This document shows, piece by piece, positions 10,607 through 17,244 of a DNA stretch of 38,413 nt. Made by a program: the position numbers and the translations under genes. Numbering within the stretch: the stretch's first letter is position 1; every line of letters begins with the position of its first letter. The stretch lies in the UHGV virus genome UHGV-0319989; one strand, 5' to 3'. A model generated the notes under the pieces. The model was not told the DNA's origin, did no database searches, and saw nothing but the letters and a program-made list of their open reading frames with translations. This DNA is from a virus.

Positions 10607-11685
10607 CAGAACGGGTCCTCCTGTACTCTGGCTTTTTTCTTTTTCCGCACGCCGGGATCTTCGGGTTCAGGCAGATAAGCATCAGGCGGGCCGACACGGA
10701 TTTCCGTCAGGGTGCCGTTCTGGTCCTGAGTAAACGTGACTTCCGAAACAAGCAGTTCGGTATTGTCGAAACCACAGACCGGATCGAAGACAATCACCCG
10801 CTGGTTGGGCTGCCACAGCGTACCGTTACCCTGTCGCCAGCCCTGCACCACATAAGTGGTTTCATCCGTCCGCGCCGCCCGTTGTCGGGCTTCAAAGTCA
10901 GCACGCGCAATACAGCCTGCCCCCGTGGCCTGCCCTGTCTGCCTGATATACATCGGACGGTAACGGGCAATAAATGCGTCCTCTGTGCGGGCCCGCAGCG
11001 CGGTGGTGGTGGCCTCACCGAAATCATCGTCGTTTCCGGCACGCTGCCCCGCCACCTGGTAAACAGAAAACCGCTCCCGGATACTCTTCTCCGTATCGCA
11101 GGAAAGGATGTTTTCCCCAAGTACCAGCGCGGTATGTGCCCGCGTTGAGCCAATACCGCCAATCACCAGCCTGCCGTGCGGGTCGTCGTAAGCCAGTGCC
11201 TGCTGCTGACCGAGTATTTTGTTGATTACCTCAATCACCGTTTCACCGTGATCAGGCTGAACATCAGGAATAACACCCGACGGCGCACCGCTGTTCACCA
11301 CCTCAATGCCGAAAGGCGCAGCAAGCGCCTGCGCAATCTGCACCAGCGAGCGTCCGTTAAACTGTGTCGGTTCGGCTGCACAGTCAATCAGGTCAGCCGT
11401 CAGACTACGTCCGGCAATACCGGTGCTGACCGAACGGGCATCGTAACGAACGGGAGTCGCCTCCACCCAGCCGGTAATCACCAGCTCATCACCAATCAGC
11501 ACTTCCACTTTTGAACCGTTTCTAATGCGCGGCTGAAGCGTGGTGATACCCTCATCTCCCGGCCACTGGCGGGTGATCTCCACACTGAAATCCCGCGCCA
11601 GCCGTTCAATACCGGCACCGATGCGCACCGATGTCCAGCCATTCCACTCCCGGCCATTTACCCGTAGCGTGACATTGTCGTTCAT
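10606..11685 (-). CDS. Mu gp44 (P)-like baseplate hub / tail protein
   Basis: 359 aa; synteny in a Mu-type tail module. Confidence 0.55.
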   Translation of the reverse strand: MNDNVTLRVNGREWNGWTSVRIGAGIERLARDFSVEITRQWPGDEGITTLQPRIRNGSKVEVLIGDELVITGWVEATPVRYDARSVSTGIAGRSLTADLIDCAAEPTQFNGRSLVQIAQALAAPFGIEVVNSGAPSGVIPDVQPDHGETVIEVINKILGQQQALAYDDPHGRLVIGGIGSTRAHTALVLGENILSCDTEKSIRERFSVYQVAGQRAGNDDDFGEATTTALRARTEDAFIARYRPMYIRQTGQATGAGCIARADFEARQRAARTDETTYVVQGWRQGNGTLWQPNQRVIVFDPVCGFDNTELLVSEVTFTQDQNGTLTEIRVGPPDAYLPEPEDPGVRKKKKARVQEDPF

Positions 11686-13058
11686 TGCACTGGCACCTTC
11701 AGAGGGATCACCGGCACAAAGCCGGGATGCGTAATGGCATTACGCCGGATAATGTCCGCGTCACGCGCCGCGTTATCAAACCAGGTCGCCGCCAGCACCA
11801 GCGCGGGTAAAACCTCATCCGGTGTGCGCTGAATGATCCGTGCAGACTGTTCAAGGCGCGTGTTGATATCCGCATTCAGATCTGCTTTCACCCGGCGCAG
11901 CGCCAGAAACAGCGCATCACTGGTTGTACGGGACAACTCCTTATCAATTGCCGTATTCAGTGTGTCGCGAATGTCAGTCAGTTCTTCCCACGTCGGCAGG
12001 TCAACCGTGTTTTTCACCGCCGGTGCATTGTTCAGTGCCGGATGCGTGACGGAAGGCCAGCCAGTGCTCTGCGCAGGTGTTGTTGCCTGCCCCACTGCGG
12101 AATTCTGCATCACCGCGGAAGTTGTTGGCGCAGGCAATCGGGTGACGGCATACGCCGCTTCACTGATTGCGGTCGTACGAAGGGTGCTGGCAACCACATT
12201 ACGCTGCTGCGTAGCCGTGGCGGTGGTTTTACTGTCCGTTTTCCAGACGCCGCGCGGTTGCAGATCGCTGCCGAGGCTGACACCGGAAAGCGTTTTGATC
12301 ATGGTGACCAGGTCGCTGGCGTTACCATAAAGGCGTTTCCCGGTACGCCACATTTTCTGCACCTGCTCAACGAGATTTTTGCCTGACGATGGTGGCGGCA
12401 GAAGTACCGAGATATCCCCCTGCAACAGCCTGGCAGCATCCGATACGGCAGAATCCACCACTTTCATCGCATCAGAAACATACCCAAGCATTGTGCTGAC
12501 ATTACCAACGACGTCGTTCTGCACGAAATCCGCCACGCCATCGATACTGAAACCTCTGAAGCTGTCACTGATGCAGTCATCCAGTGCAGAACAGGATGAC
12601 ATCAGCGTCTGCGCCGTCGCCGCACCTGAAGTGGGGTAAGAGAGTTCTCCCGCTTCGACAAACTTCAGGTCAAAGCGGACAATACGCCCTTCACTCTTCG
12701 ATGTGCTGACCCGAACTTCTCCGTCAACACAGACTTTCAGCTCACCGTATGTCGGATGGACAAGCGTGCCGGGACCGGGTTTATTCAGCGCGTCAATCAG
12801 GCGATCGCGCTGGTCAAAGCAGTCATCTCCCACCACATAAGCCGTGATGGACGAGCGAAAAGTGATTTTCCCCAGGTCTTCGGTATAGGGTTTGTCGCGG
12901 TTCGGGTATTCATGTGTTTCCACACGGCGACCGGTTCCCGCACTTTCTTCTTCAACCTTAAACGGCACGCCGCGAAATGACGCGTCCTGAAGTCTGTCAC
13001 GCCAGCCTGAAGACGACGAAAGTAATGAAGGTCGGGTGGGAAATGAGGATAAATCCAT
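11682..13058 (-). CDS. Mu gp43 (N)-like DNA circularisation / tail protein
   Basis: 458 aa; synteny immediately distal to the tape measure gene. Confidence 0.55.
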   Translation of the reverse strand: MDLSSFPTRPSLLSSSSGWRDRLQDASFRGVPFKVEEESAGTGRRVETHEYPNRDKPYTEDLGKITFRSSITAYVVGDDCFDQRDRLIDALNKPGPGTLVHPTYGELKVCVDGEVRVSTSKSEGRIVRFDLKFVEAGELSYPTSGAATAQTLMSSCSALDDCISDSFRGFSIDGVADFVQNDVVGNVSTMLGYVSDAMKVVDSAVSDAARLLQGDISVLLPPPSSGKNLVEQVQKMWRTGKRLYGNASDLVTMIKTLSGVSLGSDLQPRGVWKTDSKTTATATQQRNVVASTLRTTAISEAAYAVTRLPAPTTSAVMQNSAVGQATTPAQSTGWPSVTHPALNNAPAVKNTVDLPTWEELTDIRDTLNTAIDKELSRTTSDALFLALRRVKADLNADINTRLEQSARIIQRTPDEVLPALVLAATWFDNAARDADIIRRNAITHPGFVPVIPLKVPVQ

Positions 13059-13082: not shown

Positions 13083-14990
13083 TTATCGTGGAAAACGAAA
13101 AGGGGAATACCCCACATCGTGCGTGATTTTCATCAGGGGATCGGCTTTGCCCGGTACATCAATTATCTTCATACCTGGCGGAGCATTCTCGAACGTGACT
13201 TTCAGCTCGCTGTGCTGTGTCATGGAAGAAGATGGATTCAACAGCGGAACATTGGGTTTGTACTGACTCAGGCTGGCCTGATACTGCTCGTACTCTTTAC
13301 GATCAAAAAAAGGCGTCCAGTCTGAAGCCAGAAACAGCCCTTTATTATCCAGCCAGTTAACCGTATCTTCAGGAACAACACTTTCCAGAGTATCTTTAAC
13401 CGGCTCATACATCAGGGTTCCCAGAAAACCATATACCCCGGCCTTCCCGATAAAGCCGCGGCCTTTCCCCATCAATCCCGTTTCTGCCGATACCTTCCCC
13501 AGCGTACGCATCTCTCTGGTCACTGCGGTAATGGATTTGGTAACGTCAGCAACCCATTTGGTTGCCATAAACAGGGCAATCGCTTTCAGAACAGTTTCCC
13601 ATCCCCCCATCGCCTGCGCCGTTTCATCCACCACGTGCCAGACTTTTTTTATGACAGGACCTACGGTTTCCCAGTTATCAATAATGAGGTAAGCGCCACC
13701 AACCAGAAGAGCAATCAGCCCCTTAGCAGGCGTCATATTCATCACACCGCCGAGAACTTTCATAATTCTGGACAAAGAGCCTGCAGCGGCTCCCACCGTC
13801 AGTAAGGCCAGACCGATTTTAGCAATGGTCTTAACGAGCTCCGGGTTTTCACGGACAAACGTTCTCACTTCCTCAAGGAGCGGTTTTACCTCTTCAAGAC
13901 CATCATTAACCTCAGGAAGAAACGTTTCCCCCAGCGTGGAAGAAATGGCATCAAGTTGATTTTGCAGAAGTAAAAGCTGGTTTTCCGTCGTCGCTGCCCT
14001 CGAAGCATATTCCTTCTGCATCGAACTGCCATACTGCTGGGAATCCGCAACCCGCCTGAAGTTGGTACGCAACAAATCAAGGTTAGTCAGCAGAGGTGCT
14101 ATCGCGCCCAGAGACTCTTTCCCGAACAGGGCATTCAGCACAGCTGCCTGTTTTTCTTTGGGCACTTTAGCCATCGCATCCAGTACAGACAGCATGGTTC
14201 CCCGGGCATCTTTCTGCATATCAGCAGCTAATTTCTTCGGATTGATCCGCAGAAAACGTAATGCCTGTTTCTGCGATTTTGTCGCGGAATTTCCCGCGGT
14301 CAGGGAAAGCATGAAGTTCTTGATCCCTGTGGCGGCAATTTCTGACTCCACGCCCATCCCGGCAATGGTTGCCCCCATTGCCGCGATTTCGCCGGAAGCC
14401 ACACCTGCAACACCACCTAAAGGACCAATACGCGTAACAATATCGGAGATTTTCTTCGCATTCGCCGGGCCGGTATTACCAAGGTAGTTGATTTTGTCAG
14501 CCAGCCCGGCCACTTCATCCTGCGTCATATTAAACGCAGTACGCCACTGGGCCATCATCTGCCCGGACTCTTCAGCCGTGGTATCAAAGGCCACGCCCAT
14601 CTTCACCGCATCAGTGGCAAACTGCATCAGTTCATCACGTGCAATCCCGGCCTGACCGCCAGCCGCCACAATTTCCGCGATCCCGTCTGCAGACATGGGA
14701 AGCTCAGTAGACAAAGCGCGTACCTGCTCCGTCATGGCCTTAAACGCATCCGGCGTATCCAGACCGTCTACCACTTTGCGGACATCAGCCATCTTCGATT
14801 CAAGGGTGATGGCTGATTTTACAGGGAGTGCCAGTGCCCCCATTATTGCAGTACCCGCCCCGGCAGCGCCCAGAGCAAGGCTGGAGACTTCTTTCTGAAA
14901 CCCCTTAAGCTGACGCTGCATACCTTTAAGCGGGCCGGACAGCCTGTCAACGGCGGTGATGATGGCTTTCAGCTGAAAATTATCAGCCAT
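13083..14990 (-). CDS. Tail tape measure protein
   Basis: 635 aa, Ala/Gly-rich helical sequence with the typical TMP core (...AAGGQAGIARDELMQFATDAVKMGVAFDTT...); follows the chaperone gene. Confidence 0.85.
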   Translation of the reverse strand: MADNFQLKAIITAVDRLSGPLKGMQRQLKGFQKEVSSLALGAAGAGTAIMGALALPVKSAITLESKMADVRKVVDGLDTPDAFKAMTEQVRALSTELPMSADGIAEIVAAGGQAGIARDELMQFATDAVKMGVAFDTTAEESGQMMAQWRTAFNMTQDEVAGLADKINYLGNTGPANAKKISDIVTRIGPLGGVAGVASGEIAAMGATIAGMGVESEIAATGIKNFMLSLTAGNSATKSQKQALRFLRINPKKLAADMQKDARGTMLSVLDAMAKVPKEKQAAVLNALFGKESLGAIAPLLTNLDLLRTNFRRVADSQQYGSSMQKEYASRAATTENQLLLLQNQLDAISSTLGETFLPEVNDGLEEVKPLLEEVRTFVRENPELVKTIAKIGLALLTVGAAAGSLSRIMKVLGGVMNMTPAKGLIALLVGGAYLIIDNWETVGPVIKKVWHVVDETAQAMGGWETVLKAIALFMATKWVADVTKSITAVTREMRTLGKVSAETGLMGKGRGFIGKAGVYGFLGTLMYEPVKDTLESVVPEDTVNWLDNKGLFLASDWTPFFDRKEYEQYQASLSQYKPNVPLLNPSSSMTQHSELKVTFENAPPGMKIIDVPGKADPLMKITHDVGYSPFRFPR

Positions 14991-15074
14991 GCTTCATCTC
15001 CTCATTTATACGGACGGCCTCTGCCTCCAGATCAGCAAAGTGGGAAATAGCCGTCCGGCGAAGTTCAAGGGGGT

Positions 15075-15398
15075 TTAATTTCCAGAACCACGCGACATTG
15101 TAGAATCGCTTCCGGAGGTCTCTTCCGTCTCCAAGCCGGTAAAAAAACGCATTACAATCATGCCTGCCTTGAAAATATCCAGCTTCGTCATCTGCGCTGC
15201 AGACGAGCGCGGGATCCCGGCCAGAAGCGGGATATATTTCAGCGCTACCTGACTGTCCATTTTCATACCACCATCAGGTGAAACAGAGAAAGGGAACCCC
15301 AGCGCCTCAATCTCGTCATACGTAGGCTCACGTATTTCCAGCACATGCAGTGTTTCTTTGTGGGCGATGATCGGTTTTTTAAGTACAAGCTCAATCAC
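15075..15398 (-). CDS. Tail assembly chaperone (Mu gp41-like), 0-frame product
   Basis: 107 aa between tube and tape-measure genes; contains the slippery heptamer. Confidence 0.55.
   Translation of the reverse strand: MIELVLKKPIIAHKETLHVLEIREPTYDEIEALGFPFSVSPDGGMKMDSQVALKYIPLLAGIPRSSAAQMTKLDIFKAGMIVMRFFTGLETEETSGSDSTMSRGSGN
15141..15147 (-). other. Putative -1 programmed ribosomal frameshift heptamer (T_TTT_TTT) in the tail assembly chaperone gene
   Basis: On the coding strand CGT-TTT-TTT-ACC. The -1 frame is open from here for 54 codons across the otherwise empty gap to a TGA overlapping the tape-measure ATG. Confidence 0.5.
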
Positions 15399-15751
15399 TG
15401 GTAATCCCCTTCTTCACCGTGGAACTCAAGATCAACCGTGCCTTCTTCGGCATTATGGTTCGCTTCGCCGTGCAGCCAGGCAGACGACAGTACATAGACC
15501 TGACCGTTCGCCAGCTCGGCAGTGATGGTCATCTCATCAGACGAGGTGATTTTGTTCACCGGAAAATTCTTCGGCACCTTGAAGGTCCCTTTGACATAGG
15601 GCGCACGGTGAGTTTCCTTGCGGTCCACTGAACCGTCCAGGCCGATGATGTCATCATTGACCGTCCTGTTCATGGGCACCTCAATGCCGCCGGTCAGCGA
15701 TAGCTGCTGACCGTCAATTTTGAAATAACAGGTTCCCCCGATACGGGCCAT
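15395..15751 (-). CDS. Tail tube protein (Mu gp40-like)
   Basis: 118 aa immediately downstream of the sheath gene; ATGA overlap. Confidence 0.6.
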   Translation of the reverse strand: MARIGGTCYFKIDGQQLSLTGGIEVPMNRTVNDDIIGLDGSVDRKETHRAPYVKGTFKVPKNFPVNKITSSDEMTITAELANGQVYVLSSAWLHGEANHNAEEGTVDLEFHGEEGDYQ

Positions 15752-17244
15752 TATGCAGACTCCTCTGAATACTGAAGACGGAACTGGTTAACCACGGCAA
15801 AGACACGCAACTGGTTAACATAGTCAGGCGGGAACAGCGTGTTCAGGCGGTTCGGATCGCTGGCATCACGCTCCACAACCAGGTACTGCTTAAACAGTTC
15901 GTAGTTTTCCACGATCCCCGCACGCTCAAGCTGACGGTAGGTTGCCAGCAGTTCCCCTTTGATCACCGCCGGGGTGACAATCGCCTGACCGGAACCAAAG
16001 CGGGTACCGTCGCTGGCAAGCTTGTGACGCCCGTACTTACTGGTAATGACGGATTTCAGTTTGCGCAGCACATACGCGCTGGTATGCAGCGTCTCGCTGT
16101 CGAGGTAGCTGTTATCCGCAACACCGTAAGCGTTTTTCCTGTACGTGGTGACATCACGCTGAATGCGCAGCACCCCGCTTTCGACACACGCCGTTGCCAC
16201 GCCATGAGACAGCAGGGTCTGTTGTTCGGTCATCGTGAACCGTTTCCCCTTCGGCGCAGGCAGCATACCCACCAGCTCACCGGTCTGCGTGGGACGTGCC
16301 GGATCGTTGCGGATAAACACCGCTGCGCGGGCGGTACGGCTTGCCGCCAGCTCGTCGGCAGGCGTCTGGGTCTCTTTTTCGTATCCCGCCAGGGTAATGT
16401 GCTGCTGGTTAAACTGGTCACCTGCGGTCACCAGTTCTGACAGCGTGCCGATCTTTGCCGTATACACATGACCATACAGCTGACGCGCATAGCTCCAGCG
16501 ACCGCTGGTATCGTTCATCTCGGTCACCAGCGTGTTAACGGAGGCTGTGTCGTTGAACGGCAGGCCGATATAATCAAACGGCTCATCCGCCATTGCAGCC
16601 ACCGCGCCGGTGAGAACCGGAGCGCCCGTTCCGGCGGTACCCGTCGCCACGGCAATCTGTACGCCCGCTGGCAGCACTTCGCCCCCACCAAAGCCGTAGT
16701 AATTGAGGCTGACAGGAATTTCATTCCCGCAAAGCCCCTTATGACGCGCGGTCAGTGTGACCACGCCTGCCGAAGATGAGGCAGTAAACGGCAGGGTCGG
16801 AACGGCATTGATGGCATCCTGGATACTGCTGGCAATCGTCGCAACGTTATCGCCGTTGGTCACCGGTGCCTGCACGCGGGTACGTCCCACATAAACATTC
16901 ACCGTGCCGGTTTCGGTTGCCGCGCCGGTCACCGTCAGCGTAACCGTTGCCGCCGCGCCCGTGGATTCAGGAACGGCAATCACATATAGCTCGCCAAACG
17001 GGTCGGTCTGGCGATAAGCCTCAACCATACGCGCCAGCTGACTTCCCGCACCACAAATCTGGCGTGCATAGTCTGCCGACGGCATCAGTACCAGACTGTT
17101 GGCAACAATCTCTGCACCGTTATTGGCATGACCAATCAGCAGCGATGCTCCGCTGTCCTGTGCAGTATTCGCCGCCTGATTATCCATTTCCGCATAAAAC
17201 AGCGGAACCAGCGTATTCGACGGAATGGTGTTAAAGCTCGTCAT
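15751..17244 (-). CDS. Contractile tail sheath protein (Mu gp39-like)
   Basis: 497 aa; size and position ahead of the tube gene in a contractile-tail operon. Confidence 0.8.
   Translation of the reverse strand: MTSFNTIPSNTLVPLFYAEMDNQAANTAQDSGASLLIGHANNGAEIVANSLVLMPSADYARQICGAGSQLARMVEAYRQTDPFGELYVIAVPESTGAAATVTLTVTGAATETGTVNVYVGRTRVQAPVTNGDNVATIASSIQDAINAVPTLPFTASSSAGVVTLTARHKGLCGNEIPVSLNYYGFGGGEVLPAGVQIAVATGTAGTGAPVLTGAVAAMADEPFDYIGLPFNDTASVNTLVTEMNDTSGRWSYARQLYGHVYTAKIGTLSELVTAGDQFNQQHITLAGYEKETQTPADELAASRTARAAVFIRNDPARPTQTGELVGMLPAPKGKRFTMTEQQTLLSHGVATACVESGVLRIQRDVTTYRKNAYGVADNSYLDSETLHTSAYVLRKLKSVITSKYGRHKLASDGTRFGSGQAIVTPAVIKGELLATYRQLERAGIVENYELFKQYLVVERDASDPNRLNTLFPPDYVNQLRVFAVVNQFRLQYSEESA

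Follow-up and report, generated by a model that had tools for sequence, protein, structure and literature searches.

That phage tail assembly chaperone genes can yield a second, frameshifted product has reportedly been known since the work of Levin et al. in 1993 and Xu et al. in 2004. In phage lambda, whose slippery sequence is G_GGA_AAG, a short chaperone (gpG) and a −1-extended form (gpGT) are made from one start codon just upstream of the tape-measure gene. Phage P2, which has a contractile tail, carries its chaperone gene between the tube and tape-measure genes of the FETUD tail operon, and its RefSeq annotation lists a protein E of 91 amino acids (aa) together with an E+E′ protein of 142 aa that arises by −1 frameshifting. 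In the G/GT class, the two products occur in a fixed ratio, both are required for tail assembly, and virions contain neither. Low-level frameshifting of the G-T type is widely conserved in long-tailed double-stranded DNA phages, and a −2 shift has been described in phage Mu (PMC5009743). Here, we analyzed the tail assembly chaperone gene in a stretch of 38,413 nucleotides (nt) of viral DNA (UHGV virus genome UHGV-0319989; the whole stretch is referred to below as the window and is numbered from its first letter). Judged from its sequence and that of its relatives, this gene of an SfIV-like, Mu-tail-type prophage is very likely to undergo programmed −1 ribosomal frameshifting, with the same logic and position as in lambda and a gene order like that of P2.

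The zero-frame chaperone open reading frame (ORF; 15075..15398, minus strand) starts with GTG, ends with TAA and encodes 107 aa, corresponding to the short, G/E-like product. The only Pfam family that it matches is PF10109 (Phage_TAC_7, "tail assembly chaperone proteins E, or 41 or 14"), with 32.1 bits against a cutoff of 25, over residues 5-86 and profile positions 3-78 of 79. At the exact end of this domain lies a run of seven Ts (15141..15147, minus strand) that is read cgT TTT TTT in the zero frame (…M-R-F-F, residues 83-86, with the two phenylalanines at 85-86) and has the X_XXY_YYZ phase of a slippery heptamer, T_TTT_TTT, ending after residue 86. In the −1 frame, the codon following the slip is TAC (15141), which opens an extension (14983..15141, minus strand) of 52 new residues, YRLGDG…EEMKHG (YRLGDGRDLRKRFYNVAWFWKLNPLELRRTAISHFADLEAEAVRINEEMKHG), terminated by a TGA at 14985..14983. 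The predicted fusion, the long GT/E+E′-like product, consists of residues 1-86 plus these 52 residues, 138 aa in total, with the junction …MRFFYRLGDG… and the junction peptide …GMIVMRFFYRLGDGRD…. In the zero frame, the short product continues past the heptamer with a tail of 21 codons (TGLETEE…GSGN; 15078..15140, minus strand), which the −1 frame overlaps. Between the chaperone stop and the tape-measure ATG (14990) lie exactly 84 nt; this apparent 'intergenic gap' (14991..15074, minus strand) is coding in the −1 frame and is spanned by the −1 ORF, which overlaps the tape-measure ORF by 8 nt at ATGGCTGA. The initial annotation had pointed to a canonical T_TTT_TTT in the chaperone gene and to a −1 frame filling an 84-bp gap, both of which agree with our analysis, and its 54 open codons correspond to 53 sense codons plus the stop when counted from the shifted A-site TTT. 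Its geometry requires some correction: the heptamer lies 21 sense codons before the chaperone stop rather than about 35, and the TGA does not overlap the tape-measure ATG but comes after it, with no shared bases.

The decisive evidence for this arrangement is comparative. We calculated pairwise ratios of nonsynonymous to synonymous substitution rates (dN/dS) between the window and relatives with 74-79% chaperone identity (phiP27, ST64B, and three IMG/VR contigs). In the 84-nt gap, dN/dS is 0.05-0.17 in the −1 frame versus about 0.7-18 in the other two frames, and the variable sites are distributed 8/3/25 over the first, second, and third codon positions of the −1 frame. The chaperone N-domain gives 0.03-0.15 in the zero frame; the −1 extension is under purifying selection equal in strength to that acting on the chaperone domain. 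Within the 21-codon overlap, the corresponding values are 0.04-0.64 for the −1 frame and 0.44-1.6 for the zero frame. Over this stretch, it is the −1 frame that is under constraint, so the zero-frame tail is weakly constrained or unconstrained. The length of this tail varies from 3 to 21 codons among homologues; thus, the short product is effectively just the 86-residue domain. In the window, the −1 frame contains no ATG, GTG, or TTG, either within its 52 codons or in the open sequence that precedes them, so that independent translation of the extension is impossible. A scan of the region revealed no promoter- or terminator-like sites on the minus strand.

The site and the extension are conserved well beyond these close relatives. 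When phage genomes were searched by tblastn with the predicted fusion, both halves were recovered, in differing frames, from 28 of the 30 matching records, including phiP27, ST64B, SfI, SfII, SfV, Yersinia YeP1-3, Pantoea AH07, Edwardsiella EPP-1, Paraburkholderia IPK, and Pseudomonas DVM-2008. In 10 of the 11 phage homologues that we inspected, residue 85-90 is followed by TTTTTTT, TTTTTTC, or TTTTTTG in phase; the −1 ORFs of the inspected homologues comprise 52-64 codons and end at −2 to +11 nt relative to the tape-measure start. A wider survey of IMG/VR, species-representative genomes, and phage records yielded 186 loci with 111 distinct sequences from phages of Escherichia, Shigella, Salmonella, Yersinia, Pantoea, Edwardsiella, Pseudomonas, and Burkholderia. 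An in-phase TTTTTT[T/C/G] at the domain end followed by a −1 ORF of at least 45 codons is present in 108 of these 111, and the −1 ORFs end near the start of the next gene, with an overlap of 4-8 nt in most. Conservation of the heptamer and of the extension ORF in homologues, which the initial annotation had proposed as a check, is therefore borne out in these 108 sequences. The three exceptions are phage 118970_sal3 (a downstream indel), one locus truncated by a contig end, and Paraburkholderia phage IPK.

The record of Salmonella phage 118970_sal3 (L086, NC_031940.1 7280-8885) has a 132-aa 'tail protein' annotated at this locus, owing to a 1-nt indel following …KRVY that disrupts both frames in comparison with ST64B. 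The indel is probably a sequencing error or the mark of a defective copy.

Conservation at the slip site extends to synonymous positions. The codon preceding the Phe-Phe pair always ends in T (CGT, GGT, AAT, AGT, or CCT), and TTT invariably serves as the first Phe codon. These fixed synonymous positions persist in Pseudomonas and Burkholderia phages with 62% GC content, in which TTT accounts for 14-39% of the Phe codons. Naively multiplied across 10 lineages, the background codon frequencies give ~6e-10, a figure to be read with the caveat that the lineages are not fully independent. The extension itself has a conserved core in the alignment, [YF]xxAx[FY]W[RK]xNP…IS…A.RI, with identities down to 13-33%. 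It matches PHROG 32181, a family of unknown function with 63 positions (E = 4.8e-6), and has no match in Pfam even at E <= 10. No NCBIfam model matches the fusion or the extension, and a sequence search of the PDB with the fusion gave no meaningful match.

Among the described systems, the closest is P2 E/E+E′. The P2 gpE belongs to the same N-domain family as the window chaperone (PF10109, 47.8 bits), and in both phages the slip site lies at the end of this domain, after residue 85 in P2 and residue 86 here. The heptamer is TTTTTTG in P2 and TTTTTTT here, the −1 extensions measure 57 and 52 aa, respectively, and both end 8 nt inside the tape-measure gene (gene T in P2). However, a pairwise BLAST comparison of the two fusions is not significant (E = 15), and the rest of the tail module here is Mu-like, with a DNA_circ_N gene and a Mu-type sheath, unlike that of P2. 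The tail genes around the window chaperone are of Mu type, with an L-like sheath, an M-like tube, a gp42-like tape measure, and an N-like DNA circulation protein. Mu gp41 (144 aa) occupies the same slot as the window chaperone and has a shifted-frame extension that reaches the tape-measure start, but its best family is PF23746 (Gp41_Mu), with PF10109 scoring 24.7 bits against the cutoff of 25. Moreover, no XXXYYYZ heptamer is in phase in gp41, and the gp41 extension is read in the +1/−2 frame, whereas that of the window lies in the −1 frame. The initial annotation had described the locus as mirroring the G/GT-type frameshift of long-tailed phages. This stands with respect to the chaperone slot, as the overlapping ORFs lie between the tube (15751..15395) and the tape measure (14990), and it gains from the observed selection and from the conservation in 108 of 111 sequences. 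It needs refinement in that P2 E/E+E′ is the closer model and lambda, which has a non-contractile tail, is a functional analogue and not a family member. Thus, in its mode of action and its N-domain family the locus resembles P2 E/E+E′, whereas the surrounding tail module is of Mu type and the extension belongs to a family of its own (PHROG 32181).

By analogy with these systems, we infer how the two products would be made and used. Most ribosomes would remain in the zero frame and synthesize the 107-aa chaperone, while a minority would slip one base back on U_UUU_UUU, with the tRNA-Phe in the P- and A-sites re-pairing to UUU UUU. The slipped ribosomes would produce the 138-aa protein, consisting of the 86-residue chaperone domain and a 52-residue C-terminal domain, and the frequency of slipping would set a fixed ratio between the two products. 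If the parallel to lambda G/GT and P2 E/E+E′ holds, the shared N-domain may coat the tape-measure protein and the extension may recruit tube subunits. The motifs U_UU.U_UU.U and U_UU.U_UU.C belong to the H_HH.U_UU.Y class, which is among the most efficient −1 motifs in Escherichia coli, both support more than 0.1% shifting without a stimulator, and U_UU.U_UU.C is used by insertion sequence elements (PMC4066793).

Several observations weigh against a programmed −1 ribosomal frameshift. At this locus, the fusion product is predicted from the sequence. Neither the window nor its close relatives showed a significant RNA structure in the 48-101 nt after the heptamer, as folding energies did not improve on those of shuffled sequences (z −0.3 to +0.8), and the 24 nt upstream of the site contain no conserved Shine-Dalgarno-like element. 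Slip efficiency may therefore be low. The slippery site is also not universal, since Paraburkholderia phage IPK (L092, PV588664.1 8893-10583; record marked UNVERIFIED) keeps the −1 extension, ending in GATGGCTGA at the tape-measure start, without a T-run: its Gly-Phe-Phe is encoded by GGC TTC TTC. In IPK, the −1 frame opens no earlier than four codons ahead of the zero-frame TAA, and a shift would therefore have to occur within ~12 nt (GAG GGC GCG TAA). Furthermore, the P2 E′ segment is a member of PF06528 (Phage_P2_GpE; 78.6 bits), a family that the window extension does not match, and an hhalign comparison of the extension alignment with P2 E′ is only suggestive (P = 4.7e-4, probability 33%). 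Finally, the site is a 7-nt homopolymer, on which the polymerase as well as the ribosome might slip.

Regarding stimulators, notable hairpins are confined to two distant homologues, Burkholderia phage BgVeeders33 (L095 1059-1119; −26.8 kcal/mol, z −3.3) and Pseudomonas phage PG1 (L094 1056-1116; −16.8 kcal/mol, z −2.0), in each case starting ~7 nt after the heptamer. Stimulator use thus seems to vary within the family. In lambda, G/GT frameshifting occurs at a low level, with a 30:1 product ratio, and P2-type phages shift 2- to 3-fold more efficiently (PMC5009743). A low-level slip without a stimulator would fit the lambda G/GT case.

The main rival is transcriptional slippage on the homopolymer, in which RNA polymerase would stutter on T7/A7 and mRNAs with one U fewer or two more would encode the fusion in a single frame. 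The T7 tract of the chaperone gene does occur as indel variants in public assemblies, including a T5 variant, and UUUUUUU is under-represented in each of the three reading frames of E. coli genes, perhaps owing to transcriptional slippage or a high indel rate (PMC4066793). On the other hand, the run is just six Ts long in most homologous clades (TTTTTTC or TTTTTTG) and yet keeps the exact X_XXY_YYZ phase, which transcriptional slippage does not need. Efficient slippage of the E. coli polymerase usually needs longer runs, and the strict phase together with the frequent six-T sites ending in C or G argues for the ribosome. In addition, the TTTTTTG of P2 is annotated in RefSeq and cited as a −1 translational frameshift (PMC3091744). 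We therefore regard transcriptional slippage as an improbable source of the fusion, although the polymerase might make a minor contribution to it.

Two further explanations would dispense with slipping altogether. One is coincidence: the gap would be a non-coding spacer, its −1 frame open by chance, and the T-run would have no recoding role. Viewed within the window alone, the pattern is indeed only mildly improbable, as 26 A7/T7 runs occur on its two strands, 33 in-phase XXXYYYZ heptamers lie in minus-strand ORFs of at least 100 aa, and the −1 frame is open for at least 52 codons at 6.7% of the in-phase positions. When the 25 in-phase heptamers that have the longest −1 ORFs are compared, the −1 ORF of the chaperone site is unique in ending where the next gene starts, and it also extends the greatest distance (92 nt) beyond the zero-frame stop. 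The comparative data refute a chance ORF, which we have rejected as scarcely credible: substitutions in the gap fit a coding −1 frame (dN/dS 0.05-0.17), the extension peptide is conserved across genera down to ~28% identity, and the −1 ORF always ends at the next gene's start. The other explanation is a separate small gene with a start codon of its own, for which the heptamer would merely encode a conserved Phe-Phe. The match of PHROG 32181 to the extension alone (E = 4.8e-6) would suit such a gene, as would the separate 'hypothetical protein' that is annotated under the extension match in some relatives. However, the −1 frame lacks ATG, GTG, and TTG throughout its 52 codons and the open stretch upstream, and a conserved Phe-Phe leaves unexplained why the preceding codon ends in T and why high-GC phages use TTT. 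Given the missing start codon and the synonymous constraint, we rejected an independent gene as well, as very unlikely. Programmed −1 ribosomal frameshifting remains by far the most probable explanation.

Natural variants of the locus show the predicted fusion as a single ORF. When we searched for the fusion among 5.8 billion proteins, every full-length match came from DNA with an indel; all other matches are the short form, named 'phage tail assembly protein'. Sequences that have lost 2 nt from the T-run, or gained 1 nt downstream of it, are called by gene finders precisely as the predicted fusion. In the protein P0001 (L192, GCA_045584985.1 JBIHAX010000001.1, gene 701-1114), found on 5-6 contigs, the T7 tract is shortened to T5, giving an in-frame fusion of 137 aa (…MRFYRLG…); this homopolymer indel at the slip site is either a real mutation or a sequencing error. 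An AlphaFold2 model of P0001 based on a 27-sequence alignment had a mean predicted local distance difference test score of 44.8 and a predicted template modeling score of 0.28, values too low to support a fold search. In the Shigella flexneri proteins P0003, P0004, and P0007, the change is a +1 G insertion 11 codons after the heptamer, which we checked at the DNA level for P0007 (L190, Logan SRR25763549 contig, gene 701-1129). Here, T7 is intact, CCTCCGG is changed to CCTCCGGG, and the zero frame runs on into the extension, giving a permanently fused chaperone of 142 aa; the exact protein is present on 661 contigs (754 index blocks) and represents either a decayed prophage or a tolerated fused-only form. 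Several proteins found on single contigs traverse the third frame over part of the overlap and are probably assembly errors.

These variants raise the question of whether the T7 tract is doubly active, serving as a ribosomal slip site and as a hot spot of indels or transcriptional slippage, with lysogens carrying short-only or fused-only variants. If so, the S. flexneri +G insertion could mean that a fused-only chaperone is tolerated or functional in Mu-type tails, in contradiction to the strict ratio required for lambda. We consider this unlikely; decayed prophages combined with sequencing or mutation noise in a homopolymer offer a simpler reading of the variants.

The long product is absent from the GenBank and RefSeq annotations that we checked. 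In the entries that we read for SfIV, phiP27, ST64B, SfV, SfII, SfI, and an E. coli RefSeq record (annotated by the Prokaryotic Genome Annotation Pipeline, PGAP), only the short ORF is listed, followed by an apparent gap of 84-141 nt before the tape measure, and the long chaperone form is consequently missing from those protein sets. No slippage product is annotated in the records that we checked for SfIV, vB_EcoM-720R4, SfV, SfII, phiP27, ST64B, YeP2, AH07, EPP-1, DVM-2008, PG1, and BgVeeders33, nor in that of one E. coli RefSeq chromosome. In near-identical records, the chaperone is named 'phage tail assembly protein' or 'small tail protein E', and ORF-12 of SfIV has been called a hypothetical protein (PMC3851460). 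In the literature, we found no report of a chaperone frameshift in SfIV, SfV, ST64B, or phiP27, although Xu et al. (2004) may list some of them. The data strongly support an ordinary, unannotated case of the known class of tail-chaperone −1 recoding; its value lies in annotation, and the understanding of phage tail assembly is unchanged by it. Relatives of the locus are common: some part of it is matched in 1,077 of 5,426 complete E. coli genomes, and at least 80% of it in 211. The family also provides a natural series for relating slip site and stimulator to product ratio, comprising T6T, T6C, and T6G sites, some of them followed by a hairpin and others not, as well as one lineage that lacks a T-run.

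The chaperone gene is part of a sheath-tube-chaperone-tape measure block that, together with the DNA_circ_N gene, lies entirely on the minus strand in an order supported by Pfam matches. The upstream member is the tail sheath gene (15751..17244, minus strand; 497 aa), with the Pfam domains Phage_sheath_1, Phage_sheath_1C, and Phage_sheath_domII. It is followed by the tail tube gene (15395..15751, minus strand; 118 aa; Tail_tube, E = 3.3e-33), whose TGA stop overlaps the chaperone GTG (GTGA). Downstream of the chaperone lies the tape-measure gene (13083..14990, minus strand; 635 aa; PhageMin_Tail, E = 2.2e-42). Its putative Shine-Dalgarno sequence, GAGGAG (14998..15003, minus strand), as read from the sequence, is located 7 nt before the ATG and within the end of the chaperone extension (…N-E-E-M-K-H-G). 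The Mu N-like DNA-circulation gene (11682..13058, minus strand) carries the Pfam domain DNA_circ_N. Rfam and tRNA scans of the window gave no matches. An in-phase C_CCT_TTT heptamer (13098-13104, minus strand) is present five codons before the tape-measure stop, where the −1 frame is open for 33 codons and extends 86 nt past that stop into the start of the DNA-circulation gene; this heptamer is probably due to chance.

The region is 99-100% identical to E. coli prophages, Shigella phage SfIV, and Escherichia phage vB_EcoM-720R4. A mosaic junction separates positions 15364-15800 of the window from positions 14700-15363 (minus strand). From the end of the sheath gene across the tube gene and into the first ~35 nt of the chaperone gene, SfV, SfI, SfII, and SKA5 are 96-97% identical to the window. 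Beyond this point, their similarity falls below megablast detection, and the chaperone fusion retains ~42-44% protein identity. To judge from this pattern, chaperone and tape measure appear to be exchanged as a single module. This agrees with the reported identities of below 50% between ORF-12 and ORF-13 of SfIV and their counterparts in SfI, SfII, and SfV (PMC3851460).

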